From contig MU006103.1 in the NCBI GenBank assembly GCA_010093705.1, forward strand, positions 372,001-436,000: a DNA stretch of 64,000 nt, written 5' to 3'. Of this stretch, positions 18,656 to 54,661 are shown in pieces. The first letter of the stretch is position 1. Every line of letters starts with the position of its first letter. This DNA comes from Patellaria atrata CBS 101060. Lineage: Eukaryota. Position numbers and translations under genes: made by a program. The notes beneath the pieces were generated by a model. The model did not search any database and was not told the origin of the DNA. It was given only the letters and a program-made list of their open reading frames with translations.

Positions 18656-20146
18656 ATGTCTGAACTCTTGAATGGTTCCCAGAGTCAGGGGCCCAAAGAT
18701 CTCTGGCTCACGAGTTCATTAACAGATCCTCCTTCAAATGGACTAACTGGATCTCGAAAGCCCGCTGTTGGGAGACACGATCCGAGATGTACCCCTCCTC
18801 GATCACCTTGTGCTCCAGCGTTCGCCCAAGATTTGGAAAACAGGATGTTAAAAGATACGATTGAGTCGATTCCAAAGGCTACAGTACAGTTCACACGGCA
18901 TCGACCCCCTGTTTCTAGTAGGACATCAATGTCGGATGATGTTTCTGTCTCATCTTCGCACATGTCTATGTCGACCTCGAAGCGTAAAAAGGGGGGGTCT
19001 AAACTAGGTCTCTTGAGTCTGAAAGAACCGTCGTCAAACGCACTGGAGCAATTTGCAAAACAGGAACGCAAAAAGGCGTCTGAAAAAGGTGCAACCATGA
19101 AAAGTGGCCATTTTCCAGGCGTGTCGTTGCAAAAGTTGCCATCCACAGTTCCAAAGGTCAATCAAAAATGGGATGGTATGCCAGAGTCCACGATACCGAA
19201 GGACAGACGTTCCTCGTCCATCTTTGATGGCAGTTCATCCGTTTTCAACGGAGATTCCTCTTCCAAAGGTCGACCCGGCAGCATGGCCAGCTCCACAAGG
19301 TCCAACTATAATATCGAAAATCGCAGACGACCGAATTCTCTCGTGTCGTCTTCCTTCGAAAGCATTGCCTCGTCTACCGCTGCCGCCTCCTCAATCGGAA
19401 GCCCGCTAAAACCTCAGTCATCGTTCGCGACTTCATTAGCATCACCGAGGGAGGACATTACAGGTTTGGAGAGCCCTCCCATGAGTCCTCCATCTATGGA
19501 CTCGCTCCCAGAAATGACATGCTTCTTCCCTCCAGATGTGCTTTCAACGGGAATTACAGAATCTTCAGTAGAAACCCGAGCCGAAGACTCAAATGGCAAC
19601 AACAGCAGAGACGCTAATTGTCAGCTCACCCCGCCTCTAGAGCCTCTAGATCAGGGCCAAGAGAAAACTTTCGATGACCCTCTTAACTGGTCTCTTCCAG
19701 CAATCGCCATCACGGATGGGATCACTTCATTGAATATTGACCAGTCCCATGAGCCCGAGAGTACCGCTCCGGTCTCTGTCAACGACGACGCCCGAGATAT
19801 GACGTCTCGCGAGGCCCTACATGACGATGAATGTGATAACCTCGTAATATCCCAGACCGCAGACTCACACGAGTCCGTCACCGATTCACTTTCTCCAGTC
19901 CCAGTTCCGGATACAGGGCTCGAAGAGCGTATGCTCCGCGCATCCGAGCAGAGAAGGAGGGAGTATGATACAGTCTCCGTGGTTAGCTCCGTAGCCCCAT
20001 CGGTGTTGTCGGCACAATGGTTCCGGTCGCCGAAAGAGCGACTAGGGTTGGGAGGGAAGATGTGGGTTGAAAGGCCTCTGCCGTGGGAGGAAGGGGGGCA
20101 GGTGGTGGTAGAGAAGAAGAAAAAGAGAGGATTGTTTAACAGGTAG
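18656..20146 (+). CDS. Hypothetical Ser-rich, largely disordered protein
   Basis: 496-aa ORF with short motif-like islands KEPSSNALEQF, KLPSTVPKVNQKWDGMP and WFRSPKERLGLGG. Confidence 0.7.
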   Translation: MSELLNGSQSQGPKDLWLTSSLTDPPSNGLTGSRKPAVGRHDPRCTPPRSPCAPAFAQDLENRMLKDTIESIPKATVQFTRHRPPVSSRTSMSDDVSVSSSHMSMSTSKRKKGGSKLGLLSLKEPSSNALEQFAKQERKKASEKGATMKSGHFPGVSLQKLPSTVPKVNQKWDGMPESTIPKDRRSSSIFDGSSSVFNGDSSSKGRPGSMASSTRSNYNIENRRRPNSLVSSSFESIASSTAAASSIGSPLKPQSSFATSLASPREDITGLESPPMSPPSMDSLPEMTCFFPPDVLSTGITESSVETRAEDSNGNNSRDANCQLTPPLEPLDQGQEKTFDDPLNWSLPAIAITDGITSLNIDQSHEPESTAPVSVNDDARDMTSREALHDDECDNLVISQTADSHESVTDSLSPVPVPDTGLEERMLRASEQRRREYDTVSVVSSVAPSVLSAQWFRSPKERLGLGGKMWVERPLPWEEGGQVVVEKKKKRGLFNR

Positions 20147-20389
20147 ATGGATCGATGGGGGGAGGATGGGTGGTGAATATGACAATAGTTGGGCTGTCGG
20201 ATGAGCCTCTGTTGAACGGGGTAGTCAACATATTCTATAGACGCAGTTTAAATGAAATAAAATCAATCAGTTGCATACCTAAGGTGTCTCTCCTGAATGA
20301 CGTGACAGCCGGCCGCACCTACCCAACGCGCAAACCACGTGCTCGACGGAAGGTGCAAGGCATAAGTACCAACGACCAATCTTCTTTCC

Positions 20390-20507
20390 ATCGAACTCGG
20401 GGGTGTAGCCGAGTAGGCAGGTACCTCGTCTATCTGCAGTGCCGCTAACTTACCGTCACCCCGGGTTCGATACAGAGTACCTTCACCTCGGCGGGGGAAC
20501 TGTTTTT
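20390..20507 (+). ncRNA. Candidate Pol III (tRNA-type promoter) small structured RNA, element A
   Basis: A-box-like TAGCCGAGTAGG 20406-20417, B-box GTTCGATAC 20465-20473, long stem ATCGAACTCGGGGGTG/CACCCCGGGTTCGAT, terminal CAG-AGTA-CC...GG-GAA-CTG hairpin, then T5 and further T runs. No cloverleaf. Confidence 0.55.
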
Positions 20508-21122
20508 AATTTTCTCAATTTTTTTTTTTGATTTCTAACACTTTTGCTGCTGCATTTGTCCTTTTTTCGTTTCACTAGATGATGTGTGTTGCTGGAGTGA
20601 TTCTGGTTGTGGGCTTCGACTTTTTGTTCGTGGTTGCTGGGGAGACCGCTTGGATGAATGAGTCTCTGAAGTAACTACAAGAACCATTAAATTTCTTCGC
20701 TGTACGTACGTACCCTTGTCACAGAGGTTAATATTTAGTTTAGAGGGGGAGATTGGTCTTCTGGAGCGTGGGAGCTGTGGGCTCTGATGATTAATTTTGA
20801 TTGTGATACATACACACATAAAAGGTCAGCGCGGGAGATATTAGTCAGTGCGAGTATAGAGAATCTCCATCGAGTGCAGAGAGATGGATGATATCACGAC
20901 TTTACGCATAGATTCATAACTTACGGTAAAATCAGAACGTACTTGACCGTATTGAACAGCGATTTGACATAATGCATTTTCAACTCTAACACATCATTCA
21001 ATTGTGTACGTGGGGGAACATTCGTTGATACCTCTGCGTAACAACCACAAAAATCAAAGATCATAAAAACCAACACGTCGAACGTAACGTTGCTTCCTAT
21101 TCCCCTCAAGTTCCTAAGTATC

Positions 21123-23937
21123 TTACAGGCTACTCAAAATACTCTGAACGCCCACACTGCCCACATCCTCCCTCTTCAACACATAACTTCTCAACTCATT
21201 TCTCTCGTTCGAATTCCTCAACCTCTCCCTCAACGCCTCAGGCCCAATCACAAACAGCGTTCCCACATCTACCAGAACTTGCATCCCACCCTGGTCCGCC
21301 GCGAAGTGTTCACCGACCGGCCATCCCCGGACCAGCTCCGCGTATTTTGTCACGTCTTTGCTGATGACCAAACCGCCCGTCAGGCTCACGGTGAACTTCC
21401 TGAAATGCTCGAGGAGAAGGGAGCGTAGACCGGTCGCGAGCTCCTCGCAGAATAACTGGCGGTTACGGCCGTCCAGGGAACCTGCCACTGCAGTAGCGAC
21501 GTGAGATAGAAAGGTGAACACGGCGAGACAGGTCGGCGTCTCCGTTCCTAGCGCTAGCGCTGCATCGTCTTTGGGTCGGAAATCCTGCTTCTTCTGCCCT
21601 GCGAGGAGTTTGCCGGTCCACGCAAGGGCGGCGTCAAGTGTGCGTTGTAGGATTGTGCTGATCTTGTGCTCAAAGATGGAAAGATGTGTCTGCGTTGTCT
21701 TCTCGATTTCGCGCCGGATGGTGAGGTTAGGGGAGGCAAGGGGGAAGAGGACGGTTTGAGTGGCGGTTTGTAGAAGGTGGATGATGGTGATAGCGCTACG
21801 GAGAGAGGGAAGGTAGTTGAGGTCAGGTTCTGTTTTGGTATTTTCGGCTGCGGCGGCTTGTTCAGCGGCCGCATCCAGTGCTGTCTCAAGGTATATTTCG
21901 CCCATGTGGGAAAGAAGTAGACTTAGTAGTGCTTGTACGTCTTTTGGTGTTTCGTTGCCGCCGCTTAGCTCCAGGCTTCTCCCCACCCCTTCTGCGAGCC
22001 ATTTGAGCATACGTTTTGCGTTGGGGAGACTTAGAGCGCCATCCTTTTCTGTGACTTCGATCTCCCCTTTCGTCTTTTCGCTATCGGCGTCTTTCAAGCC
22101 TGCGATTCGGAGGAGCATCGCTTTTTGGGATGCTGGGAGGTCAGATGAGTCGAGTTTATCCATATATGCGTCTCTTGCAGACGATATCAGCTCTCTTCCT
22201 CTTTGCCCTAGAGAACCCAGATAGGTTGTAGGTACTTTCCTCCGTTTGGACTAAAAAATCTTAGTATATATCACATAAAAGTATTCGCTTTGTTGCTTAC
22301 GTGATAAATTGTGAATTTGAGCAATAGGGATGAATAAAGCTCCTCTAGATTCTTCTTCTCCCGCTCAATGTACGATGAACCTACAAAGTAAGGAACAAAA
22401 AGATCTTCCAGCTGCTGATCAAGCGTAGCAGCTATTTGTGATGAAACTGGTTCTGGAGTCTGTGTCAACCCATGAGCCTTTAAGTCGTCTACAAGAGTCC
22501 CAATATAGCTTCGAGAAGCTTGTAATGTTCTAAGAAATGCCAATGAGGAGATGGAATTGGCTTTTTCTAAGACCATTTCGAGGCGTTGTTGAATCTATAC
22601 CATGTCAGCATCTGACGAACAAGAGCACTATACCGCGCCTACTGATTGTTGGAAAATACGCTGCAGAAATCTAGAAAGGACTTCATCATAAAAAGGAAAC
22701 GCATTTTTGATGATAAAGGCTTCATTTTGAACGGTTATCTTAACTTCGTCTACAAGCGATTGTAAACTCGGTTCTACGCCCGGGGGTTCGGTGTCTGGAT
22801 CTGCGAGTTGATCCCAGCTGTACATATGGTCAGATGCTTTGGGTGTATGCTTAATTCGTTGGCGGAAGAAATACGTTTCATCATTCCCAGCAACTTCTTC
22901 CGTGATCAATTGACTTCTATCAATGAAAAACGGATGCTGATTGACGAACAACGCCATCATACTGGCACCATCACTAAAATCTCGCAAGGCGATCGCGCAT
23001 TCCTAATATTAAAGTAAATATGTATACAACGTGACATATTGTACAGTTTTGACTAACCCTCATATTTTCAAAATGCTGTTTCCGATAGGAATCATCAAAT
23101 TGCTTGAGAAGATCGGTCTCCAAACCCTCGAGGAACTTTTCGATGATTTCTCTAGTTGAATGTTTGGTGGGAACTGCAGTTTTTCGTCTGTCTGCTCCAT
23201 CTGTTGAAAGCTTACCGTTTACCTGAGAGCCAGTCTCCATTCTTACACTTATTTTCAAGAGTTGTCGCGCGATATGGGCACAGCGAATCTTTCCCTCTGA
23301 TGTACCCAACCTTCTGACGTCTTCTAGTGATGCAAGATTTCCTTTTTCACTAACTTCTATCCAGCATTGTATTAAGAATTTCGCATCCTGAGCCCGTTGT
23401 CGTTGGCCATCTAACTCATCCAACTGCTCTCCAATGCGCACAGCGGTGTTCCCACCAATATCTCCATCTCTTTCACTACTGCTTCCGTTGAGAGAGCTAT
23501 CCAATTGATGGAATGATTCTATTGCTCGCTCCAACTTCTTGCTCAGTTCACTCACATTTGCATTATGTTGCGCTTCCGCTCGGCGTACTGCGCCTGACAA
23601 CTCATTTTCTTGTGACTCGAGCTCTTCGGAGAGGGAACCTAGACGGGATAAGGCATGTTCGAAAGTTCGGATGAGAGGTTTAGGATCGAAAGCGGCTTGG
23701 TGAGTGATTGGAGCTGAGCGACGACTGGCGGGTATAGCACTATCTGATAGAGCTTCTATGAAGTCTTTAACGATGAAGTCTTTACTCTATGATTGAGATT
23801 TAGCCCGCTTACTTGATTCTTGGGTTTGCTAGGTTACTTACGGAGAAAGTCTCGAGGGTAAAGTTATGCCCCTTCCCCCTACTAATAGTACCAACGGATG
23901 ATAGGATTGACGCAGTGTCTCCACTAGAGGTAGGCAT
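21123..23937 (-). CDS. SEC10: Exocyst complex component Sec10; about 6 exons
   Basis: ATG at 23937. Introns include 23787..23841, 23003..23057 and 22818..22874. Motifs FTLETFSSKDFIVKDFIEALS, FDPKPLIRTFE, FVNQHPFFIDR, LLAGQKKQDFRPKD, GGLVISKDVTKY. Confidence 0.9.
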
Positions 23938-24563
23938 CACGAAACAAGTCGGCTTTGATGGCGCATTAGTTGAACTATTTTCGGTAGGTGTAAGGCATTG
24001 CTGATATGATCTTGTTGTTTGCTCTGAGAGGTTAAATCCAGTAGTTTTCCGATTATCCCCTGACGGTCGCAAATCTTTATGTCCCGTTTACAATATCAAA
24101 TCGTGATGAGCCTGGTCGTTATCGAAGTTGTACTGAGGTGTATACCTCCGTCTATACTGTACATCAAACCGTATGGGGTTTAGCTTAACATACGCGTGGA
24201 GTTTGGTAGATGTGGCTGAAGCCCTAGTGATCCCTGTTAGCTTCAAGGTAAGAGCCGCAAAGCGTCGTCGTCACAGGATGGAGCTTGCCTACCAAACTTT
24301 TGTTAGTGCCGGCTGCCGTCTCATTCAAATGGAAGTCAACGTGAATTTATATACAACAATGCGCTCTCCACTTCCTTTCTCCCGAAGTCTCTCATTTTCA
24401 TGAGTATTATCACACTACCAAAGGAATTAATTTTTATCTGTTTCTCTACGGAGTTGTCTCCGCCGCAATTGCTTGTCTCGAGAAGCTTCTCAGCTCAACA
24501 TAGGCACAGACTATCCGCATATATTCTTTCGTTCACCATCGTATATGGTCTATTTGACTCACA

Positions 24564-25735
24564 ATGGTTGGTCGAGCAGAATCCACCGCATTTCACACAA
24601 ACACAGGTCCCAATGGCCAGGAACTCGACGTAAAGGAGAGAGAACAGTTATTTAGACCTTACCTTCCGCAACCACCAATAGCTCCCTACTCTCCCTCCCG
24701 TGTCCCATTCCAAAGACAAAAGGTACCACCAAAAGGTCGTCGCAGAAAGCTAATTCGAAATTTTTTGAAGTCTCGATTCCACTTACTGGTCTATTTCATA
24801 ATTCACGCGATCTTTTCCGTCTATATACGATTCCGTACTGCATATCACGTAACCGTCAATCAATTAATAGCCCCTTTCAGATACCACTGGCGAACCCCTC
24901 AATACATTCAGCGCGATGTTAGCAGTTTAGAGCAAGTTCCACGGCATCTAAGCGTGATATTAGAACTAAACCGCAACGATCGCGACGGGTCTGGGCTGGA
25001 GAGTTTAGTTCACGATGTTGGGCAGATCGCAGCATGGTGTGCCAGTGCTGAGATTCCTTTTCTGAGTGTATACGAGAGAACTGGTACTTAACATAATTCT
25101 TATGGATTTCATTGAGTTGTTGCTTATCTCGACTTTAGGCATCCTAAAGAGCAAAAACGCTCATACATATGAAGCCATTGCAAACACTCTTCAAAACTAC
25201 TTTGGAGATTCTCCAAACCGGCCTACACTCTCAGTTCGAGCTCCAAATTTCCCTTCATTCAGCCCACCGCAGACACCCCCTACCTCAGCGGAGGGCGAGC
25301 TAGTACCTGATGAGGAGGCATCCGATGAGATAGGACCTTTCCTACCACATCTCACAGTTCTTCTCATATCTGCGGAGGACGGACGAACAACTCTTGTTGA
25401 CCTTACAAAAACGTTGGCTGAGATGAGCCAGGATGATAAACTGTTCCCTGATGAGATCACTGCTGAAGTGATCGATGCAGAAATTAGAGGACACGTGATG
25501 GACGAGCCGGATCTTTTAATACTCTTTTCGCCGAAAATCGTACTGGACGGTTACCCTCCTTGGCAACTTCGATTAACAGAGATCTTGTAAGTCATTGTCC
25601 GGTTCCTGAAACGGTATTTCAAAGCTAATGACTATCAAACTCAGTCACTCGCCTGATAATTCAGGTGTAAGCTATATTGTATTCGGGAGAGCTTTGCGAA
25701 AGTACGGCAAAGCACAGATGAGATTCGGGAGATGA
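24564..25735 (+). CDS. NUS1: Dehydrodolichyl diphosphate synthase complex subunit Nus1 (NgBR); 3 exons
   Basis: Introns 25084..25138 and 25587..25644. Motifs PRHLSVIL, AAWCASAEIPFLSVYERTG, EPDLLILF...LDGYPPWQLRLTEIF and the C-terminal RxG motif (MRFGR*). Confidence 0.92.
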
Positions 25736-26028
25736 TAGACACTCCCTTGCACAGTTTTGTCTTTAGTGAATCAGGACATAGCTGGAATAATAAATTCAGT
25801 TGATACCCAAGCGTACCAAGGGATAATTAAATGCGCTCTTCGCTAATAATGCTCCTTATCAGCTGACTTCTACAGCTAGTGCACATGTTCATTCCATTGT
25901 GGCCGGAATGGTGGGTATCTCAATTCTTTGGAATGGGCTAATGCATTTCTTTGTTCGAAGCCTAATGATATTTCGTGGCATCTTTCAGATTAAGATTACT
26001 CGCTGAGATACTCACCAGTGATATCACG

Positions 26029-27729
26029 ATGCCGAGCCCGAATTTTCACCCGCTGTTATCACGAGCTAAAAGGGCGATATCGAATCGTCCTAGACCTTCA
26101 ACTTCTGGTCATTCACCAACATTTCCGGAGGAGACTAAACAAGAGCGATACTATGGCTGCAAATGTCCCGAAAGCCCTACCATAAATGACCTGAAGGAAG
26201 ATCTGGTAGGACGTACAGACACTTTTGAGAGACAGTCCTCCTTTGCTAGTAATCTTGTGGACGAGTTATCACGTATAACCCCCGAAGAGATGACAACTAC
26301 CATAGCTCGATCAGCAGAGAATAATGATGTCATTATGTCTGACTCTCCTCCGAGTATCTTTTCCACTCCGGAGGTCTTTGACCAGGTTAGCTCAAAGAAA
26401 GCGACATCTACATCTTCGAGTCCAACGAGTCCTAGGTATTACCACCGCCTGACTCCTAATAGAAGGGCAATAAGAGCTCAAATGGCGAGCTATGTCGCTC
26501 CGGCCGACTACTCTGTTACTCCACACATGAAGCACCATCCTGTTGGTTTGCAGAGGACGAGGTCCATCCGCAGAAGCACCAGCCGTGGGAGTCAAAAGGG
26601 CAAGATAGGTCTTAAGCTAAAGTACAACACAGTTAGAGTTACAAAATGCATATCTCTGCCCAAGAATAACCACATAGTATCACATTGGCAGTCCATGGTC
26701 AGAGAAGCATCCCTAAACGCAGATTCTCCCACTCGAGCTCTGATCCAAGACGGTCTCAAATCACCCCGGGTCATAGCCCTCAAAAGCGAGTTCATCGACT
26801 TTGGATCCCGTACACTCCCTAAGACGCCAGAAATCTTCTCCAGTCCAACCGAATTGCTCAACTTCTCCATTTCAACGCAATCCACCACGCTCAACTTTCC
26901 CCAATCAACCCCAACAACCCCGCGGGCCAACCAAGACCCACTCCATTCCTTCTACCTGTCTCCAGGCCACTCGCACACCCAATCCCACAATTTCGGCTAC
27001 AATTTCCCCCTCACTCCCATTGCTACCTCTCTCGACACACTCGCTGTGATTGCCTCCGATTCTCCCATTTCCCCGCATCGCACACCTCGCGCCTCCATCC
27101 ACCCTCCGATATCCCGTAGTACCTCTATCCACCTGCACTCAGGTTCCGTCCTCACCGTCATCTCGCCCGAAGACAGCCCCTTCCAGCGCTCGACTTACCT
27201 CCCCGGTCCAATACGCTTACAGCCCCCGTACGCACCCGGGGGTGTCGTCTCCCTCGCGACATGGAAGGAGACATTAACCTTAGACGGGGAAGGCGCAGTG
27301 AGGGCACGAAGACAGAGCGAAGACGCGACGATAGAGGGGCTGGTCAAGTATTTCGAGGGGTTGGGAGTTGAGAGGACCGCGTCAGTCGGCTCCACGGACC
27401 AGTTTTGGAAGAACGGGAGGAGGAGCAGGAGGGCGTTGGCGAGGAGCGTGACGTGGATCGAGGGCATCGGGGAGAGTGGTGAACCACCCGAGAAACCGTT
27501 GCCCGCGTTGCCGGATACCCCGAGGACGCCGGGAACGCCGTGGAGGATCTCGGATTCCGGAAGGGGGTTGGGCGAGGAAAGGGCATCGACGGATCCAGGT
27601 GAAGGGGCAAGGGTGTTTGAGAGACCGAGGAGGCCGAGTAGTGCTACGAGTACTATGACGGGTGGTACCAATAGGAGCAGTATCAGGGGCATTGGAGTTC
27701 GCAGAGGAAGTCGGTTAAAAGAGTTATGA
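26029..27729 (+). CDS. Hypothetical Ser/Pro/Thr-rich protein
   Basis: Long single ORF from ATG at 26029 (about 566 aa) with a motif-like block SIHLHSGSVLTVISPEDSPFQRSTYLPGPIRL. Confidence 0.7.
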   Translation: MPSPNFHPLLSRAKRAISNRPRPSTSGHSPTFPEETKQERYYGCKCPESPTINDLKEDLVGRTDTFERQSSFASNLVDELSRITPEEMTTTIARSAENNDVIMSDSPPSIFSTPEVFDQVSSKKATSTSSSPTSPRYYHRLTPNRRAIRAQMASYVAPADYSVTPHMKHHPVGLQRTRSIRRSTSRGSQKGKIGLKLKYNTVRVTKCISLPKNNHIVSHWQSMVREASLNADSPTRALIQDGLKSPRVIALKSEFIDFGSRTLPKTPEIFSSPTELLNFSISTQSTTLNFPQSTPTTPRANQDPLHSFYLSPGHSHTQSHNFGYNFPLTPIATSLDTLAVIASDSPISPHRTPRASIHPPISRSTSIHLHSGSVLTVISPEDSPFQRSTYLPGPIRLQPPYAPGGVVSLATWKETLTLDGEGAVRARRQSEDATIEGLVKYFEGLGVERTASVGSTDQFWKNGRRSRRALARSVTWIEGIGESGEPPEKPLPALPDTPRTPGTPWRISDSGRGLGEERASTDPGEGARVFERPRRPSSATSTMTGGTNRSSIRGIGVRRGSRLKEL

Positions 27730-29256
27730 TGGGTGTTGTATCAAGTGTTTGAGTTCGGGGATGAATGCTACACGCTTTTTGGCTTTTTTCTGTTTTCTTA
27801 CTGTAAAGTGTAGCTAGATCGTTTACCATCTGTATGATGACGTGTTACACATGAGGAATGTTGTACTCCCGTGTACATGCGGTACATTGCACTGGTGATT
27901 ACTGATCGGGCTAAACGCTTGTGTTAGAAAGTATGAATAGGGCAAACTGTAGCACACCGCTTAAATATACTACTCATCAATTGAGAAAGCAAGTAAGCAG
28001 TTTCGTTATGGACAAGGGACTACTCTGATTGATAATATTTGCATAGAAAAATAATGACTCTATAAATTTATAGTTGTAATGAATGTATATGACATGCTTG
28101 ACAGGTGAACATATGCGAAGAGATACCATAGTAGGTAGACAATACCGTAGCAAGCTGGAAGCCCCCTATTCTCAAAACAAATTTGGATCTGATGGTCACT
28201 CCTCTGAGAAGGTCAAAAAGACGAATTGATCTGAACCGTGTTATTCGTTACCGTAGCAGGAGACGGAAGCTTCAAGCCCATGTTAAGAGGTCGTACTGAT
28301 GGGTAAGTTTGCTTAACCCCCTTCGAACCCAGTCGGCAATTGCAACTGAATGGGGGTGGCTTTATTCTTAGTATTTCTCTTTATTTCGGGGTTGAATATC
28401 TTCGTCTGAAGTAGTAATGTTGGTAAAGTAATTTTTCTTCTTCTCCAAAAGTCTATATTCTTCCTCGAGCTGTTTCACCCGAATTTTAGGAAATATTAGT
28501 ACACCTAAAGAATACTAGAGCGTATATCTACTCAAGAAATATCATAGGTTTTCCATAAATGTAGTGAGCAATGAATTCTGATGATGATCAGTCATTTCCA
28601 GACAGGTCCTTGATACGAGTATTGGAATCTGTGGTTGACAGTCAGCTTTGAACCCATGAACGACATTGATCAACATAAAGGTGGTGTAAATGAAATTCAG
28701 AGACCCGTATTATAAGCACCGACAGCAAGCATTTGTCGATACCTGCTATACCTTTTCCGGCTCTTCCTATATAAAGATTTTGTAGGGTGAAATATCTCAT
28801 CAGAGTAGAATTGATACAGATTAGAAGATGAGGAGAAACTTACATTATGAGTCGACCATTGTTGATAATAGTGCACCGTCCTATTCTCAAGTCATGAAAT
28901 GTCTTCTAACATAAGTGAGGACGTAAATTGAAGCTGAGGTGCTCATGATTCTTCGAGGAAAATTGGACGGGAAGAGAAAACGTTTGATAGAGCACCTACC
29001 ACCTCGATTGGCGCTAATCTTACAGCAGTTTAGGCTTGAGAACCGCGGAGTAGCCCAATTTAGGCCTAGCGAGGGGGAAAATTGGCGGTGAGATGCAGGG
29101 ACGAGACGGGAGCTCAGCACGGGCACCAATTGTAACGTTTTTGGGGTTGCGTGTGCGACTTGCCTCCAAATTGATAAACCTCCCCTTTCGCACACAGAAG
29201 CAGAACTCGACCCTCGCACATATTCCTCTCCTCAATCTTCTCATATCGTGGTAAAA

Positions 29257-30675
<1,419 letters not shown>

Positions 30676-30936
30676 GGTAATGCACTGGAATGCCCCGTCA
30701 CACGATTTAATGTGAAAAATGGAAGGAAAGAAACATTGTTTGGAAAAAAGCAAGAAACTTGCTCACTAATGGTATATACCTAGATGTTTAATCACGAGAA
30801 AATCTTTATTCATCCCCTGAAAATCCGACACGCTGAAATGCTCATGAACGCGCCCCAGTGCTGTATTCATCGTCCCATCTATGTATGAGGTGTTGTTCGT
30901 CACCCCTAAATCATCATCACGAAATATCAAACCCGC

Positions 30937-32855
30937 TCACAGCTCGTTGCGCCCGGGGAACTTGATCTCCCAACCCCGAGGCGGAACCGGGTACCCGATC
31001 CAGAAATACCAGATGCGCATAACCTCGTACACGATGATATTCCATCTGCCCCAAAATGTTAGCATGTGATATGCTAATACACCTCCGTAGAAGCTACATC
31101 AATAGGTGAAACTTACACTTTAGCCGGGATGCCTGCATAGCTCTTCAGCACCCACCAGAACGTGCTCCAGACCAGATCCCATTCCTCGCGGAATTCTTCC
31201 GTGAGAGTGAGGTTTTGCCGTCTATTTCTGCGGTTGAAGTCTGGGCGTCTATCTTCCTCGTCGTCATGGGTATCTCGCTCTTTCTCCTGAGGGAGTGTCT
31301 TCTGCGTGAGCTGTTCCACAGGAATACCAAGCTCCTTCGCCTCCATCATGCGCGAGAAGTCCTTGATAGCGGTGAGTGAATGTGATACGCGACCAAGGGT
31401 GTTAATAAGTGCAACGAGCTCCGTACGGCGGAGTGGCGGATCATTCGAAGAGTCATGCTCATCAAACTCGAAAAGTACTTTGAGCGCGGTACCGTAGCCG
31501 GCCGTCTGCAGTTTGCCCCACAGTCGACACTTATCACAACCTACACAATCCATGATGCGAGAGACGTTACGGAAGCGATTGCGGAAGTCCTCTTTCAGGC
31601 TAGCGACACTAGGATCCCGAAACATGACGGTCTCATCGAAAATTTCGGGGCCAGCGGGAATAGCTGCTGATAGGGAGAGTACAAGGTTTTTGGTCTGTTG
31701 ATCCTGTGCCGGGTCCGCGGAACAGTATTCGTAGTCCTTGATATGCTGGCGGATCTTTCCGACAGCTCGGAGCATGAGGGCGTAGTTGAAGTAGAGGTTT
31801 GAAATGCGCTCGGGGTGTTTGTGGAGACGTTGTTCGTAACATTCGAGATTGGGACTCCATTGGCCGGTAGTTTGGTTCAAAAAATCGTAGCAGAGGTGGG
31901 TAGAGATGGAGGCGTGCATACCACTAACCACGCGGTGGAAGACGCGCTTTTCGAGACATTCATCTTCAAATTCGAGGGTATCTACTCGAGAAGGTTCGGC
32001 GTTGTGGGCGATAGCAGACTGGATGTTTTGTTGAACTACTTGGGCTTTCAGTACGCTTCGCAGATCTTGCGCTGCCTGAGCTTGTCCGCCGAAAGGAGAT
32101 TGGTTCATACTGGATTCCCAGTCTGCTCGAGGTTTGGAGAAACAGTTCTCTCGGTAGATAGCTTCCCATACTTGGTGAGAGCCTGCACCTGCGTAGCCTG
32201 TGAACCGTTCCGGATTATCTATCAGACTGACGTAGTCTCCCTTCCCTGTAGCATTCTCATCATCTGGCACGCAATAGTCCCGGTCATCACAATCGTCATC
32301 ATATTCCACAACGCAACTTTCCCCGACATCTTCACCAAGTTCACCCTGTAACGGCCGTTTCGGTCTCTTCTTCTGAGCTTCTCTTCCAGGATGTTGAGCT
32401 TTTGGGCCCTCCAATTTTCCAAGCTCTTGCGCTCTCCACACTAAAGGTATATCTCCTTCGTTATCTAGGGTATTTACAGCGCATGCTATGTTTCCACACA
32501 TGCCATTTTCTTCGGACCAGAAGGGACATTTCTTGTTATACAGATTCAATCGGTAGTAGGAAAAGAAGTCGGTATTCTGAGTAATCGATTTGACGTAGGG
32601 ATATAATCGGTCGTTGAGGTCGTCGAGGGTAGAATAGGAAGCACACGCATCAGATACTATAGCTCCTGGTTCGAACTGAGAGGGATGTTTAGACGTAAAA
32701 TATCTTCCAGAGGGTGTATTAGTTGAATTAGATTTGCTTACTGCGCAGACATTCGGTTGGGAATTATTTGATTTTGTAGGTGGTTTGGAAGTCGCATGAG
32801 ACGTTCCTAGCAATGAGAAGACTGCTAGATAGAACAGTTTCTCAGCAGCCCGCAT
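30937..32855 (-). CDS. ERO1: Endoplasmic reticulum oxidoreductin Ero1; 2 exons
   Basis: Signal peptide, CPFW...CGNIACAV, NPERFTGY, CLEKRVF, SGMHASISTH and the active site MDCVGCDKCRLWGK. Intron 31046..31116 adds a terminal exon ending RNEL*. Confidence 0.95.
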
Positions 32856-33269
32856 ATTTACGGTTCAACCCCTTTTGATCAATCCCAGAATGTCAGCGCA
32901 TAGGTCCACGATTCGTTTCAGGTTCGGAGGACGCGGCGGGAATATGAACAAGGGAACGGTACTTACTTATGACAAAGGCCGACAAAGAGATGCTTGTTAA
33001 TCGATTGTTTAGGAAGCTCGGCAGCATCAAAGAGGCCAGATTGAATTAGAGAGCTTATTTATGTGGTCAGACCGGGGTGTGGGGGTGGAGTAAGGTAGGT
33101 ATAGTGATCAAGTAGTAGAGTTGGTTGGAGGGAACCGGCCTAAGGCGGAGAGCTATTAACAAGTTGATTGAAAGAGTAGGTCCAGTGACGCGGGTTGCCG
33201 AGGGCTCAATAATGGAAGGTGATAAAGAATATGAACGAGAAATAAACTAGTATATATTGAAATAAAAAG

Positions 33270-33446
33270 GACACCAGGACATTGATGGGAAGTGTCAAAA
33301 TGTCATGCCAGCATCAGGAACCCGCAACGCCACCCAAGCAGTAACTGTTACTCCTGTAAGGTGGCCTCAAGCAGCGGGATGACGGGCATGAAGACGTTTA
33401 CCAACCGCCCGAACCGTACCCGACAGGAGCTGCGTAAACGGCGTCT
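33270..33446 (-). ncRNA. Candidate structured ncRNA (two long hairpins followed by ACAUUU; H/ACA-like 3' hairpin)
   Basis: Nested stems TCATGCC/GGCATGA, CCCGC/GCGGG, GCCACC/GGTGGC, AGTAA/TTACT and AGACG..GTTTAC/GTAAAC..CGTCT. Additional G-U pairs favour the minus strand. Confidence 0.4.
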
Positions 33447-33762
33447 AATTACGAGATGTGTAGGGTCAAATTGATTCTCGGCTTGAAATGCTACGAATAT
33501 AGAATTGAGATCAGTAGGTGAAAATTACCCTCGTGCACCAGAATGTTCACATGCTTATCGATAAGGTCGTTCATCAACAACTAATTGATATGGGGCGGCT
33601 AATCTTCGCCACTTTTTTAGAAGAAATCTAGTCGCAAAATCATTCCCCCAGTCCCGATGGAGCTCGAAGCTTTTCGCGACAATTTGTGACTGTGGAGCTA
33701 CGGGATACGCGTAATTACAAATTCCTCGTGTTCAGAATCCCCTCCCATCCAGATCTGACATC

Positions 33763-36700
33763 ATGGACGACCTTTACGATGAGTATGAACCCATTCCCCT
33801 CAGTCTTACGGGACATGCTAATGGGCCTGCAGATTTGGTAACTTTATCGGCGATGCCGAATCAGAAGAGGAATCCGATAATGGCGCGCCCAACGCGGATG
33901 CGTATGTGTATGACGACGATGCCGAGGAAGAGGAGGAGGTCAATGATCAACAGCTCATGGAGATTGACGAGAGTGGACCTTCCAATGCCGTAGTACTACA
34001 CGAAGACAAACAATACTATCCTACAGCGCAACAAGTCTATGGCGAAGATGTTGAAACCATGGTTCAAGAAGAGGATGCGCAACCTCTCTCTCAGCCCATA
34101 ATAGCGCCTGTTGTACAAAAAAAGTTTGCAGTGGAAGAGACAGACCTACCACCAGTATTCTTCGCTCGAGAGTTTATGGCAGACCTAATGAACTTCCCAG
34201 CACAAATACGTAATATCGCACTAGCCGGTCATTTACATCATGGGAAGACCGCGTTCATGGACCTTCTCGTGATGGAGACTCACGATATACAAGAGCGGTT
34301 AGATAAGAAAAGGGGTAAAAAGCGGGATGAGCAGCTGAGATATACGGACGTGCATATCCTAGAAAGGGAACGAGGTCTATCTATCAAAACGGCACCGATG
34401 AGCTTGGTTTTACAGAGTACGAGAGGGAAATCCCATCTATTTAACATCTTAGACACGCCCGGCCACGTAAATTTTGCAGATGAAATAGCAGCCTCACTCC
34501 GCTTAGTTGATGGTGTCGTACTGGTCGTAGATGTAGTTGAAGGCGTCCAGGTCAATACACAGCAAGTTATCAAGCATGCTGTTCTGGACGGTCTTCCATT
34601 AGTACTCCTCATTAACAAGATGGATCGATTAATACTGGAGTTAAAACTACCACCAACAGATGCATATTTCAAATTGAAACATGTGATCGAAGAGGTGAAT
34701 ACTGTTATCGAAAATACAATCCCAGGTCAGGGCGAAAGTTGGCGAGTGAGTCCCGAGAAAGGCAATGTTGCTTTCGCGTGTAGTAGCATGGGATGGTGCT
34801 TTACTCTCCCATCTTTTGCTAAGATGTATTCCGACAACTACGAAGCGAATAGGGTTGGGAAGCCACGACATTCTGTTAGACCAACAAACGGTGCAACGGC
34901 AAGAATACATACGGATAGTATTGCTCCCGATGAGTTCGCAAAACGGCTATGGGGTGATATTTTCTTCAATCCTGGCAGTCGGAAATTCTCTAGAAAAGGG
35001 CTCGAGGAAGGCTCAAAACGATCTTTCGTTAACTTTGTTCTGGAACCGATATACAAGCTCTATTCTCACACAATTAGCCAGAGCCCAGATGAGCTAAAGG
35101 AAACACTCGCATCTTTAAATATTTATTTAAAACCATCTCAATACAAGGTTGACGCAAAGGATCTATTAAGATTAGTCTGCGCTCAGTTCTTCGGTCCCGC
35201 AAATGGATTCGTTGATATGGTTGTCAATCACATCCCCTCGCCTCCTGACGGCTCTAAGAGGACTCTCGAACGATTTTATACCGGTCCACTAGACACAAAA
35301 ACGGCATCCGCAATGGAAACTTGTGATCAGGATGGCCCACTTGTTGTTCATGTCACTAAACTTTTCAATTCGGTTGATGCAAAGAGCTTCCACTCGTTTG
35401 GTAGAGTTATGAGCGGTACAGCTCGTGCTGGCCAACAAGTTCGTGTATTGGGCGAGGGTTATACTCTCGAAGACGAAGAGGATATGGTTGTAGCAACCAT
35501 AAACGATACATGGATTTCAGAATCCAGATACAATGTCTCCACTAGTGGCGTCCCGGCTGGTAACTTTGTACTCCTGTCAGGTGTCGACAACTCTATCGTC
35601 AAAACGGCCACTATCGTGGCGCAGAAACTCCCCGATGATGAAGATGCCTATATTTTCCGACCGTTAAAGCACTTTTTCGAATCGGTTTTCAAAGTCGCTG
35701 TGGAACCCATCAATCCTTCGGAGCTGCCAAAGATGCTGGACGGTCTCCGTAAGGTCAATAAGAGTTATCCTTTGATTACGACCAAAGTTGAGGAATCCGG
35801 CGAACACGTTGTCCTCGGTACTGGAGAGCTTTATATGGACTGCGTACTACACGATTTACGTCGACTCTATGCCGAGATGGAGATCAAGGTCTCTGATCCA
35901 GTAACCAGATTCTGCGAAACTGTAGTCGAGACATCTGCAATCAAATGCTACGCTCTCACCCCAAACAAGAAGAATAAGCTTACTATGGTGGCCGAACCGC
36001 TAGATCCCGGTATCGCTGATGATATTGAATCTGGTAAAGTCAACATCAAAGATCCAGTTCGCGTTGTAGGGAAATTCTTCGAAGAAAATTATGGCTACGA
36101 CCTACTTGCATCCAGGAACATCTGGGCATTCGGTCCCGATGATATGGGCCCAAACATTCTTCAAAATGACACTCTACCCTCTGAAGTTGATACCAAGCTG
36201 CTCAAGAGCGTTCGTGAAACTATCCGCCAAGGGTTCAGCTGGGCCACTCGTGAAGGGCCACTCTGCGAAGAACCCATTCGCAATATCAAATTCAAGCTTA
36301 TGGATGTCAACCTTGCTCCAGAAGCTATCTTCCGAGGCGGCGGGCAAATGATCCCAACCGCGAGACGAGCTTGCTATTCATCATTTTTGATGGCCTCTCC
36401 TCGCCTTATGGAACCTGTTTACGAATGCTCGATGATTGGACCTGCAGATGCCGTGAGTGCTTTATATACTGTACTTGCACGAAGGAGAGGTCATGTGCTA
36501 CAAGATGGACCCATCGCAGGCACACCATTATACCAGGTCAAAGGATTAATTCCTGTCATAGATTCCTTTGGCTTTGAGACAGACCTGAGGGTAAGTCATA
36601 ACGCTGTCACTAATATGCCTTTTCGCTTCTGCGTCACTAACTTGTCCATACAGATCCATACTCAAGGTCAAGCCACTGTCTCATTAATCTTTGACAAATG

Positions 36701-36896
36701 GTCCATCGTCCCTGGTGATCCCCTCGATAAGGAGATCCAACTTCGCCCGCTCGAACCTGCATCCGCGCAGGCTACTGCACGCGACTTCGTACTGAAGACT
36801 CGGAAGAGAAAGGGTCTCGCTGAGGATGTTACCATCAGCAAATTTTTGGAACCTGATCTCTTCAAAAGTCTCAAAGAGAGTGGTATCTTGGACTGA
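33763..36896 (+). CDS. SNU114: U5 snRNP 116-kDa EF-2-like GTPase Snu114/Cwf10; 3 exons
   Basis: MDDLYDEFGNFIG after removing intron 33783..33832, VVLHEDKQYYP, G1 GHLHHGKT, DTPGHVNF, NKMD. Second intron 36591..36653. Confidence 0.96.
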
Positions 36897-38429
36897 TGAA
36901 AGTAGCTCTGGTAATTGAGGGCCAGAACCTACTTTTAGTATGGTTATGCAATGACACGCAGAATGAGCCAGCCCGTCGTTAGCTCGCCTTTTGACGGAGT
37001 CGGGGGAGAGCGGATAGGAGCAAGTTTCCGCTACGAACGGACAGTGAGTTTTTACCCGCTTGTCGTACTCTTTTAGCGTTCGGTCTGATTGATGCTGTCT
37101 CACCAGAAATATACTCCTGTAGTGTGGACCGCATATTCCAGTTGAGTTAACTTCATTGGAAATTTTTCAGTTCCTCGGGGTTATGCCTGGTTCATATCAG
37201 CTCCCTAGTGAGTCAATTCAAGGAACTTCCTTCTAACTGCATGTTCCATGAAACTTTCCATACTTTCTAGAATAGAGTTCACCCTGAGTCTGAAATAATG
37301 CTTGCCCACCTTCCCGTGAATACGCGGATCGTAAGAGCTTTTTGCGTAGAATACAGAAATAGTCAATCTAGTGCACACGTATTCCTTAATCTTGCGCTGC
37401 TTGATTTCATAGGAAAACTTCCGAGTGATGTTCATGATGTTGAGCCGCTGCCCATTCTCTGTCTATTCAACCCCCTTTAGAACTCCTTGATATGGATCCA
37501 GCAACATAACAACCAAATCCCTCAATAGCCATATAAAACATTTGTACTTCGAGACCGGCTACTAGACCATCATTGTAAGCTGTCCCCACAGATTCCAAAC
37601 ATCATTCATAAAACCTGTCTTTCCCATAGAGCCGATAGCCCCTAAACCAACCACTAGAACGGCTTCCAAAAGCACCTGAATAACTCCACATCTAGAGCAC
37701 GCAAACAACAAAGTATGGACGTCACAGACCGGCAGAAGCAGCATGACTGAGGAGAGAATATTTGATGTAAAAGCCTGGTATATCTTCGTCAGGAAAGGAT
37801 CTTTGATTTTTCTTCCCATCTTGTATCAATATCTTTCTGTTGATTGCTATGTTCCTTTATATCCACACCTTATCATTTTAAGTCTGTCATTATATCGTTT
37901 TATAGACCTATACGAAAAATCATTTTACAGTTCTGCTATCTTTAAGATCATCCCTCTTGCTGGCAGTGCTGAAGATTCCCTATTATAATATCTTGACATT
38001 CATGAAATTCCACCTAGGACGACTTACAGGCTCGACTTTCAAATAAGTCGCAGTATATATTTCTTTAACCTCCATAGCTTTTTGCCCAACGTAAAATCTA
38101 CTTAAGAGCTATAATGAGTCTCATTCCTCAGCTATGCAGTAGTTACCATACACTACGACAGAGGGGTGTAAACAGAAGACCTTATCAACACGAGATGTCG
38201 AGAGCCAGACACAAACACATAAAATAATCGTGCACATAGAACGCCGCGCAGATACATAGAAGAAGAATACTATACATTGAACAGTATTCCCGACCATCAA
38301 AGAACCCATCACCCGCGCCTAGGACACAATTTCCCTATCTAAACACGTGAGTCTCCCCTTCATGTGACTTACCATCTTAGCACTTGCACCGCGCAGCTAA
38401 GAACCTCCAAACCGGTAGTCATTTCCCAT

Positions 38430-38616
38430 AATCCCCCGGGCTAGCCTAGTGGTAACGCCACCAGGAAACATCGACAACCCCGGGGGTCGACTCCTCGAGG
38501 GGGCAAATTGCCCCCATTATCTCGGGCCCCAGTTGGGGCGGCAGATGTACCACGTCCCGCCTAGAAGGCGGGACGTGGGAACTGTTTTTTGAACTTTTTT
38601 TGAACTTTTTTTTTTT
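38430..38616 (+). ncRNA. Candidate Pol III (tRNA-type promoter) small structured RNA, element B
   Basis: A-box TAGCCTAGTGG 38442-38452, T-arm-like CGGGG-GTCGACT-CCTCG containing B-box-like GGGTCGACTCC 38484-38494, GC-rich hairpins, perfect 13-bp stem 38550-38578 inside CAG-ATGTA-CC...GG-GAA-CTG, then T6, T7 and T11 runs. Confidence 0.6.
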
Positions 38617-39640
38617 GGGCTCAGTGGTTTGTGGTTTTTCTGATCGAGGAGAAAGGGGAAATGTATGTAGAGGTGGTGGAGGGTGGTTGCGATTGGAGAA
38701 CGTTGCATGCGTACGTCATTAATCTGTTGAATTTGAGGGTGTTATAGTTGATCTAAAAGCACGATACAGTTAAGGAATAAGACTCGCCGTAGCTCTCGAG
38801 TAGATCTCAGGTCAACCTGAAGACACGGAAGAGATATAAGCAAGAAATACTCCCCGATGTTTAGTGCTAAAACGGCACTGTAAATCACGCTTCGTAGATG
38901 TTCATGAAGGTCTTCCGTCAATCGTACCAGATTACACCGTAACTGTTCGGAACACCATCGGAGACACAGTATCGATAAACCTCATTTCCAACTCTAGAAT
39001 CACCTTCATTTTCCTTACCTATCCTGGTATAGCGGCACACCTACAATTCATCTTGCACGCAGCGGTTGTTGTAGTGTCACCTTCCGTGAGTCCATAACTC
39101 TCTGGGAGAAAGGATTTCGAGTGTATAATGATCCGTATTGAACGTGGTTGAGAAATCTCCTTGGGCTGCCAGAGACGTGATTGTAAAGACTTAGGCTGGA
39201 TATCCATAGGGAACACAGGAATGGGGAGAGAGGATATACGGATGGGGTTGAGAATATTAGAGGCAAGATTGCTGGTGAGGTTAAGGGGTGTGACGATAAA
39301 GATGTACAGAGTTAGAGGATGGAAGTTAGGGAAGTTGAAAATAAGGGGGTTAAAGCGGTGGAGTGACGACAATCAGGGAGATGATACTGTTGTGAGATGG
39401 GGGCTAAGTTTGGGATGTAGAAAGGAGCTTTCGACCGGCTTACTCTATTTATATTCTATATTAATTTTATGTGTGCATGAAGATATATACACTGCTAAGA
39501 GACATCTAAAGCACCGCGTGCTCAACGGAAATAGACATGGGTATCGTGTACGGGGATATGCAGCGACAAACCAGAAGGCTAGAAATGCATCGACAGATAC
39601 CTCCCCAAAGGTAAAAGAGAATACACCAAATCCACCTACC

Positions 39641-52652: not shown

Positions 52653-54661
52653 TTAGCAATGATCGAAAGTGTTGTAAGCAAAACTCGCGCCATGATGCCC
52701 TTGAGCATCGAACTGAAATGAAGTTGCGGCGTCGTCAAACCCGATGCCAGGCATTACCGCAACGCCTGCCTGAAGCATGTTGTAGTCCATCGCATAGTCG
52801 TCAAATTGTATCGAGCTGTTGTACGTTGCTAGGTTGGCTGTGTTGAGCATGGTGGCGGAGGGATCGAGAGGAATTTCGGACTTGAAGGGAGGAGTGGGGG
52901 AGGAGACGAACTGGAACTCGAATTCGGAGGGGCTGATGCTGTAGTTTGCGAATTGATCGGTGGAGATTTGATCGTGCGGGCTTGAGTCATGCTTATCGGA
53001 GGTGTCGATGTCTTTGTCCCCTGAGATGACTGTCTCTTCGACTTCTTTTATCCAGATGTTTTTTAAAGTGTCCATGGGTGGGTGATCCCCACCGCCTTTA
53101 CCACCACGTCTCTCCTCATTCTTGCTCTTACGTCCTCGCTTACGCGGGTTGAAGTGGGTTCGACGAAGATGAGCGGCTGCATTGTAGTATGCACCATACT
53201 TCTTTCCCTGACTACATTGCTTGCATTTTGAGAGAAAGTCTTTGTTGGGTGACGCATCTACCGTGACCCAGACCTTTCGTACTTTCGTGTGTACTCGTTC
53301 GGTATGACGACGAAGCTCGTGTTCGCCACGAAACCCATCAGGGTTTTCATCACACTGTTTGCAATATACTTTTGGGTGTGAAGGTCGTACATAATGCGTT
53401 CTCGAAATCGCAGCTAGGCTTTTCGACGATCCGTCTTGACTCTTAACACGCACAATCTGACCTTCAGATGACTCTTTCGCAACCGACGGTTGTTCAGAAT
53501 CTGAGACTTTTGGTTGAATAGAACGTCGACCTTGAGCGAGTTGCTCCTGGCGACGGCGAAATAAACGAGTCTGACTTGATGCAGAGGATTTGAAAGAAGA
53601 CGTGGATGTTGAGCTCTGACTCGAGTCTGATCTCTCCATATCCTCCACAGTATCAGACGATGAGAAGTGAAAAGATGGTGGAACATCACCATGAGAAGGG
53701 GTACAAGACGATGAAACATGATGCTCAGTGTCGACACAAAGGGGATATGAACGGTTGTCTTGTGTCAAGCCGTGCTTGACACCTGACACACTGTTCGAGG
53801 GGAAACACTTCTCTTCAGAGAATACAAAATCAGAAGGTGAAGACGAAACGTTCGAAAGAACAGATTGAACACGCAACAAATTAAATGTATTTGAAAGAGC
53901 TGAACCAGCGATACTACTTTCTCGAGACATCTCGCTTGGAGGTGTCGACACAAACGACTGTTCACCTATTGTTGCGCTGTTAGGTGAGATAGAACCGTCA
54001 TATGGTGACAAGTTCCATTGACTAGAGGTTGGAGCGGATGGATGGGAAGCCCATTGCCCGTTTGAGAACGATTTCTCAGTGCGGCCTGAAAACTTCTCGA
54101 CCCAGTCTTTGGGGTCGTAAACTTCACATTCGTACACGTTTGGTAGTTTTTGACGGAACGAGGTGTTGGATAATTTGTAGGCGTTGGAAGGGTCGTCGCC
54201 AGCAGTCTGCCACTGCGCGGAGTATGGGCCGGAGGATAGACTGGGAGCCGATGATGTGCCCTCGCTACCGGGTGAGGATGCTATTGACGGTACTCTTGTC
54301 ATGGGTGCTGCTGTGGGAAAGGATTGCATCGAGCGATAGGCGCGGCTCATGCTTTGTGGTATCGATAGTTCCTGTGTGAGGTTAGAAGAGGTCCGACAAG
54401 TAACCAAACAGAGTATTCGAAGCGTACATTAGGCCTGGATGAGCTCGGGTATCCTCCATATGACATAGTTCTGGGGATATGAGGTGCCTGATCCGTCCTG
54501 GAGAAGGTATCTTCGATAAGTTGGGCTTTTCTTTCGTTCCATAGTAGTTTGCGTTGATCCTCTGTCAGGTCGGAATGCTGCTGCCAGAATGCCTGACACT
54601 CCTGTTGTAAGAGCTGACGGATCATATCAGTGGTGCTGGTCGACATGCAATTGCTCGCCAT
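52653..54661 (-). CDS. Putative Zn-finger transcription regulator resembling key-lime-pathogenicity (KLAP1-like) proteins; 2 exons
   Basis: Intron 54372..54427 links the 54661 ATG exon in frame. Domain HPKVYCKQCDENPDGFRGEHELRRHTERVH...LSKCKQC...YGAYYNAAAHLRRTHFNPRKRGRK...RGGKGGGDHPP. Confidence 0.75.

Follow-up and report, generated by a model that had tools for sequence, protein, structure and literature searches.

To our knowledge, few RNA polymerase III (Pol III) transcripts of filamentous fungi are known beyond transfer RNAs (tRNAs), 5S, U6, signal recognition particle (SRP) and RNase P RNA. Described systems that come close to the two loci treated here include tRNA-derived short interspersed nuclear elements (SINEs). 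For example, Au-like SINEs of plants are about 144 nt long, place box A at 13-24 and box B at 57-67, and share their 3′-terminal hairpin with long interspersed nuclear elements (LINEs) of the RTE type (PMC6007223). Another close system is found in Neurospora: its abundant microRNA-like RNAs (milRNAs) depend on Pol III, with a T cluster that follows the small RNA immediately, and milR-4 is cut by RNase Z from a tRNA-containing precursor, as in murine gammaherpesvirus 68 (PMC3547838). Here we describe two elements, A and B, of Patellaria atrata CBS 101060, found in a stretch of 64,000 nucleotides (GenBank assembly GCA_010093705.1, contig MU006103.1, positions 372,001 to 436,000 of the forward strand). 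This whole 64-kb stretch is called the window, and all coordinates are positions within it. At both loci the sequence has the build of a type-2 (tRNA-type) Pol III unit, which is supported well beyond chance, and both elements end in nearly the same 3′ cassette. Elements of this kind, Pol III small RNAs or SINEs derived from tRNAs, are known, and for this cassette no description was found in the main texts searched.

Terminal module, promoter boxes and T runs

Elements A and B lie 18 kb apart, and their principal features are the following.

About 20390-20529, + strand: element A, intergenic
20406-20417, + strand: A box of element A, TAGCCGAGTAGG, an exact match to the consensus
20464-20474, + strand: B box of element A, GGTTCGATACA, one mismatch, overlapping the first two bases of the module
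20473-20502, + strand: shared 3′ module of element A, CAG-AGTA-CC-ttcacctcggcgg-GG-GAA-CTG, with a weak hairpin inside and T5 next to it
20503-20529, + strand: triple T run of element A (T5 at 20503-20507, T4 at 20510-20513, T11 at 20519-20529)
About 38428-38616, + strand: element B, intergenic
38442-38452, + strand: A box of element B, TAGCCTAGTGG, an exact match, situated in an 8-bp hairpin
38484-38494, + strand: B box of element B, GGGTCGACTCC, one mismatch, inside a T-arm-like hairpin
38542-38584, + strand: shared 3′ module of element B, CAG-ATGTA-CC-acgtcccgcctagaaggcgggacgt-GG-GAA-CTG, with a perfect 13-bp hairpin (38550-38578) inside and T6 next to it
38585-38616, + strand: triple T run of element B (T6 at 38585-38590, T7 at 38595-38601, T11 at 38606-38616)

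The two tails follow one layout, namely CAGA(T)GTACC, a hairpin, GGGAACTG and then a T run. In the window, the pattern GTACC-N8-38-GGGAACTGTTTT matches twice, each time on the + strand; 100 dinucleotide shuffles contain no match. An earlier note on this DNA, which had claimed the same terminal module with oligo-T at two loci, thus described the sequence correctly. It had also called the module identical, which is not so, as the 5′ strand of the internal loop reads ATGTA in B, with one extra T compared with AGTA in A. The apical hairpins, which had been called completely different, have GGCGGG in common on their 3′ arms and for this reason may be not wholly unrelated. CATCGA blocks are present in both elements as claimed, but their order differs, the block standing before the A box in A (20389-20394) and between the boxes in B (38469-38474).

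A longer pattern, CAGA(N)GTACC-N6-36-GGGAACTGTTT, was searched in prokaryote genomes as a chance control, where it has 21 matches per 596 Gb, and in a metagenome collection, where it has 56 loci; given these figures, two occurrences in 64 kb are far beyond chance. The 56 metagenome loci are rejected as relatives: in a script screen for hairpin, boxes and T run, none of them pairs both boxes with a closed hairpin, and the loci inspected (L012, L043 and L040) are chance matches, unrelated and mostly in coding-looking DNA. A 20-mer from the core of element A has no match in viral contigs. Within the window, a structural scan for helix-(N)GTA-helix...helix-GAA-helix followed by T4 recovers A, B and one weak, unrelated match.

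Both elements also carry the two internal boxes of a tRNA-type promoter, for which the consensus sequences are TRGCNNAGT(N)GG (A box) and GGTTCGANNCC (B box). The distance from A-box start to B-box start, 58 nt in A and 42 nt in B, falls inside the range of tRNA genes at both loci. Exact A-box sites number three in the window, both strands counted, and two of the three belong to A and B. When a strict box pair is defined as an exact A box and, 20-110 nt from it, a B box with no more than one mismatch, two pairs are present in the window, both at the A and B loci, compared with a mean of 0.013 in 300 shuffles (one pair in four of them, two or more in none). This bears out the earlier claim of A-box-like and B-box-like motifs upstream. 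Furthermore, the pairs share strand and order with the module at both loci.

The similarity of A and B extends beyond the first T run, up to T11, which was not part of the earlier description, and 3′ of T11 none is found. The runs are spaced as T5-AA-T4-CTCAA-T11 in A and as T6-GAAC-T7-GAAC-T11 in B; such a triple T-run architecture occurs only at these two loci in the window, both strands checked. Over both strands the window has four T runs of at least 9, half of which are the T11 runs of A (at 20519) and B (at 38606). The tail of element B (38579-38616) can be read as three tandem GAACT-Tn units (T6, T7 and T11), and element A has a similar AA(C)T-Tn series. The GAACT-Tn series looks like a slippage duplication of the terminator.

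With the box pair, the terminal stem and the triple T run agreeing in order and strand between the two loci, A and B are read as one family. Each locus has what the sequence of a type-2 unit should have: an A box, a B box 58 nt (A) or 42 nt (B) further on, and a terminator-like run of T5 or T6. The reading that we prefer, which in our estimate stands about in the balance, is that type-2 Pol III units derived from tRNA genes form a small dispersed family, of which A and B are two members that have diverged. The claim of a family rests on two loci in one window plus an indirect sign of a few more copies, described below. The earlier proposal of a type-2 Pol III family is thereby carried in part, by the box pairs, the module and the triple T run, all beyond chance, by the hint of copies of A's core, and by the lack of any known family to which the elements would belong. 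That the likeness is a coincidence, or reflects a DNA-level protein-binding motif unrelated to RNA, seems very improbable: there are two copies only, B is made of perfect DNA palindromes and loose box criteria give no significance, but three independent features, each of them alone far beyond chance, share one order and one strand at A and B.

Known families, further copies and descent from tRNA genes

A cmscan of the whole window at gathering thresholds gives no Rfam family at A or B; the sole match at this level is Afu_198, a small nucleolar RNA of the C/D box type, at 28684-28817 on the - strand (46.6 bits versus a gathering score of 40, E 2.6e-05), which puts the window with filamentous fungi of the Aspergillus kind. 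Permissive Rfam scans (E up to 10) bring up nothing for A; the matches of B, at E 0.42 or weaker, are noise. Covariance models of 5S, U6, SRP, RNase P/MRP, Y, vault and small nucleolar RNAs do not match at A or B, and Infernal on pieces of 95 nt and 83 nt, with E up to 10, gives no tRNA match. The best short-piece match of B, to mascRNA-menRNA with an E of 7.1, is not significant and rests on the T-arm-like hairpin. ARAGORN at its defaults, introns on or off, reports no tRNA at A or B; with the threshold lowered to 80% (-ps80), A (20399-20487) comes out as a poor Arg(TCG)-like cloverleaf whose acceptor stem has three G-U pairs and whose T stem is broken. Thus A and B are not tRNAs, and the earlier statement that they match no known RNA agrees with Rfam (cmscan) and ARAGORN at normal thresholds. 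A literature search of main texts found no description of such a family, and a full-text search with six stretches of A and B returned primer coincidences only, in 8 papers.

Among animal type-2 Pol III RNAs, vault RNA, BC1 and 4.5SI are comparable to A and B in their internal A and B boxes, their length of 90-160 nt, their 3′ oligo-U and their non-tRNA body, but have no sequence or Rfam match to them. In vault and Y RNAs, moreover, the 5′ end closes with the 3′ end, whereas the 3′ cassette of A and B closes on itself.

The indirect sign of more copies comes from two sequencing runs, X1 and X2, which were aligned to 20000-39000; one contig of 33.9 kb spans the whole of this region with no differences and may be the window's own source. 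On these 19 kb, run X1 has three pieces, a long contig of depth 311 and two contigs of 32 letters that fall in one region of element A.

20411-20444, + strand: core hairpin region of element A, with possible extra copies (X1 contigs at 20411-20442 and 20413-20444)

The two short contigs have one differing letter each and depths of 1100 and 750, compared with 311 for single-copy sequence (about 2-4 times). These short high-depth contigs, from one sample, are a hint that A's core is present elsewhere in the genome in a few more copies that deviate slightly from it. The depth bin that contains B has no surplus contigs at 95% likeness in either run.

The promoter boxes, the class-II-like word GCCGAGT that A carries, the T-arm-like hairpin of B and the poor cloverleaf of A are in line with descent from tRNA genes. 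The yeast relic tRNA genes ZOD1 and ETC9/iYGR033c reportedly retain A and B boxes. They resemble the present elements in that the tRNA body has decayed, both boxes are usable and the loci are intergenic, and differ in being single loci with no common structured 3′ cassette and no paralogous copies. That A and B are likewise decayed tRNA genes which have kept their promoter boxes, either as TFIIIC landmarks in chromatin or on their way to extinction, and make no useful RNA, is in our view quite unlikely. Such decay would fit boxes that are intact where the cloverleaf is gone, as the ARAGORN and Infernal results have it, and it would fit the position of both loci between convergent genes. But independent decay leaves unexplained the identical 9-10 nt plus 13 nt of the tail together with the triple T run, the three extra stable hairpins of B, and the extra copies of a core in A that is not tRNA.

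Folds, proposed mechanism and origin of the shared tail

Apart from the module, the predicted folds of the two elements involve the following strands and hairpins.

20390-20405, + strand: 5′ helix strand of element A, ATCGAACTCGGGG..., the likely start region, in a helix of 13-15 bp with the B-box region in the minimum free energy (MFE) fold
38433-38440, + strand: 5′ strand of element B, CCCCCGGG, pairing with 38479-38486 in the MFE fold (inverted repeat I6, 8/8 complementary)
38481-38497, + strand: hairpin of element B, CGGGG-GTCGACT-CCTCG, T-arm-like as we read its sequence
38499-38515, + strand: GC-rich hairpin of element B, GGGGGCAA-A-TTGCCCCC, between B box and module, absent in A
38526-38539, + strand: GC-rich hairpin of element B, GCCCC-AGTT-GGGGC, between B box and module, absent in A

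In element A, positions 20390-20402 form an inverted repeat (I1) with 20459-20471, 92% complementary. The B-box region is thus paired to the 5′ end, the A box and a hairpin are enclosed, and the 3′ module comes immediately after; the presumptive start site of A is placed from tRNA-gene geometry. The + strand gives A the distinctly more stable fold, with an MFE of -46.5 kcal/mol (z -2.3) compared with -37.1 (z -0.6) for the - strand. The fold of element B has a z of -5.5 and is equally stable on both strands, and its module, when folded alone, has a closing GCAG/CUGU, a 5x3 internal loop and a 13-bp stem (z -5.9). The window has 27 close perfect inverted repeats with arms of at least 7, and the 13-bp hairpin, with a loop of 3 nt, is the longest of them. 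All helices of B are perfect Watson-Crick palindromes with zero G-U pairs. A second perfect inverted repeat of B, of 8 bp (38499-38515), lies 35 nt from the 13-bp one. The palindromes of B also contain many hexamers that look like restriction sites (CCCGGG, GTCGAC, CTCGAG and GGGCCC), and no reading tested accounts for the palindromes.

If A and B are small-RNA genes of one family, as we prefer to read them, TFIIIC would bind the A box and the B box of each unit, and Pol III would initiate some 15 nt upstream of the A box, with termination at the first T run and two more T runs behind as a back-up. The predicted RNAs would be about 118 nt (A) and about 163 nt (B) long. The tRNA cloverleaf would have been lost from the heads, with the promoter and the 3′ cassette retained in both. 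The cassette would be composed of a 3-bp CAG/CUG closing helix, an asymmetric purine-rich A(U)GUA/GAA loop, a CC/GG helix, a variable hairpin and an oligo-U end. It may serve as a terminal handle, in which a stable 3′ stem beside the U tail fixes the 3′ end and binds protein, presumably of La type at the end together with a second factor at the internal loop. Head and apical hairpin would vary freely. For the internal loop, a bulged-G (loop E / sarcin-ricin) type is proposed, the arrangement in which AGUA stands opposite GAA. The loop E of eukaryotic 5S rRNA, in helix IV-V, is comparable to the AGUA/GAA that A has between helices just before its 3′ end; it differs in that there is no Rfam 5S match, that B has AUGUA and that the flanking helices have another sequence than in 5S rRNA. 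Transcription, start site, conservation, the fold of the internal loop, the protein partner and function are all what we infer from the letters of the two loci.

Several results weigh against this picture. With looser criteria the boxes are no longer significant: two pairs are observed, the shuffle mean is 1.44, and two or more occur in 86 of 200 shuffles. The upstream flanks of A and B align no better than shuffles, so a common upstream promoter element is not found there. The two runs that match the stretch come from one sample of one study and are both of genomic DNA, with no RNA run. As for the internal loop, AGUA and GAA between Watson-Crick helices fit in A, whereas B has AUGUA with an extra U in the 5′ strand, and for A's module the energy model prefers another register, AGU/ACU plus CCUUC/GGGGG; with the extra U in B and the other register in A, the loop-E fold is not secured. 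Covariation is impossible with this pair, since the helices are identical in both copies. The G-U-free palindromes of B and its strand-neutral fold look more like the product of a DNA-level process than of long selection at the RNA level. Lastly, the same tail and T11 stand beside heads diverged past alignability, which suggests a recently shared tail; a SINE, or gene conversion, would account for this more readily than old paralogs.

Selection on promoter and tail in small-RNA genes is one of two ways to arrive at unlike heads with the same tail, and whether the units spread as DNA or via RNA is not settled. The main rival, which we hold to be possible though rather unlikely, is that A and B are two subfamilies of tRNA-derived SINEs, the 3′ cassette being a tail from one partner LINE that has no cellular function: a stem-loop recognised by the LINE reverse transcriptase, then a short repeated T-rich end. 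Unlike heads with a near-identical tail are the classic SINE pattern, the tail closes with three AA(C)T-Tn units in both elements, and a few more copies of A's core are apparent. The Au-like plant SINEs have nearly the same layout (PMC6007223), and Aspergillus fumigatus is reported to have tRNA-related SINEs of 140-493 bp at low copy number (PMC5063351). With tRNA-derived SINEs that carry a LINE-type 3′ hairpin (Au-like elements, PMC6007223; AfuSINE2, PMC5063351), A and B have in common a length of about 120-160 nt, an A box close to the 5′ end and a B box that follows after 40-60 nt, a terminal stem-loop that recurs in differing elements, a short repeated end and an apparently low copy number. 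A and B are unlike them in that they lack target-site duplications, have no known partner LINE and carry a Pol III terminator-like T run plus two more. Indeed, no direct repeats of at least 8 nt bracket A or B, although old copies could have lost them. An A-rich tail is absent, and Pol III should stop at the first run of T5-6, which would leave the downstream T runs uncopied. The depth bin of B, where a SINE might show surplus contigs, has none, and within the 64 kb neither a LINE nor a third copy of the tail was found. The AfuSINE sequences printed in the table of their source have no likeness to A or B, and the 12-mer of the tail is present in 0 of 13 of them (PMC5063351).

A bolder version of the small-RNA-gene reading can be drawn from Neurospora. 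Neurospora milR-4 and the tRNA-miRNA units of gammaherpesvirus 68 have, like A and B, a tRNA-type promoter head, one or more hairpins and a T cluster right behind, and differ in that their heads, genuine tRNAs or close mimics of them, are cut by RNase Z (PMC3547838). A and B have no valid cloverleaf, and their longest stem, of 13 bp with a closing helix of 3 bp, is short for Dicer. The precedent of milR-4, from a filamentous fungus, makes a mechanism with a promoter head and a payload hairpin conceivable, though A and B fall outside its class by these marks. Fungal Pol III “cassette” RNAs might exist in which the degenerate tRNA head is a promoter only, one protein docks on the conserved basal stem with its bulged-G loop, and the apical hairpin, a payload that varies between members, is released or presented as a small RNA. 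They would parallel, in the cell, the tRNA-headed units of Neurospora milR-4 and the gammaherpesvirus, with a conserved scaffold of their own; this we regard as a long shot.

If A and B are transcribed, a family with its own conserved 3′ scaffold would be added to the Pol III transcripts of fungi, a simple pattern would find such units in other genomes, and such units could find use as compact cassettes for Pol III expression. Should A and B be SINEs, they would represent an undescribed fungal SINE/LINE pair with a T-rich end. On either reading both loci merit annotation, at present as candidates only.

Genomic setting and minor observations

Element A is situated between the 3′ ends of two convergent genes, an open reading frame (ORF) of 496 amino acids and the gene of the exocyst protein Sec10. 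The 496-aa ORF, just upstream of A (18656-20146, + strand), is serine-rich and has no Pfam family. Element B lies in a spacer of 2.7 kb on which two genes, one of Snu114/EFTUD2 type and one of alpha/beta-hydrolase lipase type, also converge with their 3′ ends.

Upstream of both elements a CACGTG is found, at 20336-20341 and 38344-38349, that is, 54 nt from the 5′ helix of A and 89 nt from that of B. With 8 such sites in 64 kb, and with flanks that as a whole align no better than shuffles, the paired occurrence may be due to chance. For the same behaviour of the flanks, an upstream TAAGNACC word and TTTCC(C)AT, both spotted by eye, are not claimed. Within 20446-20456 and 20470-20478, element A contains the short words GCTAAC, ACTTACC and GATACAGAG: GCTAAC is similar to the fungal branch-point word, ACTTACC complements the 5′ splice site GGTAAGT, and GATACAGAG is similar to the ACAGAG box of U6. 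A spliceosomal reading of these words is set aside as coincidence, since the defining motifs are lacking. Readings as a Helitron end, a miniature inverted-repeat transposable element (MITE) or a nuclear copy of mitochondrial DNA (NUMT) were likewise dropped for lack of the defining ends or motifs.

Elsewhere in the window, ARAGORN with introns on reports a tRNA-Ser(GCT) at 54329-54715, the intron of which would measure 291 nt; it overlaps a long opposite-strand ORF and is probably a false positive. A contig of run X2, with a depth of 4.1 compared with about 430, skips 229 bases at 36580-36810, near the 3′ end of the Snu114-like gene, and may represent a rare variant or an assembly artefact.

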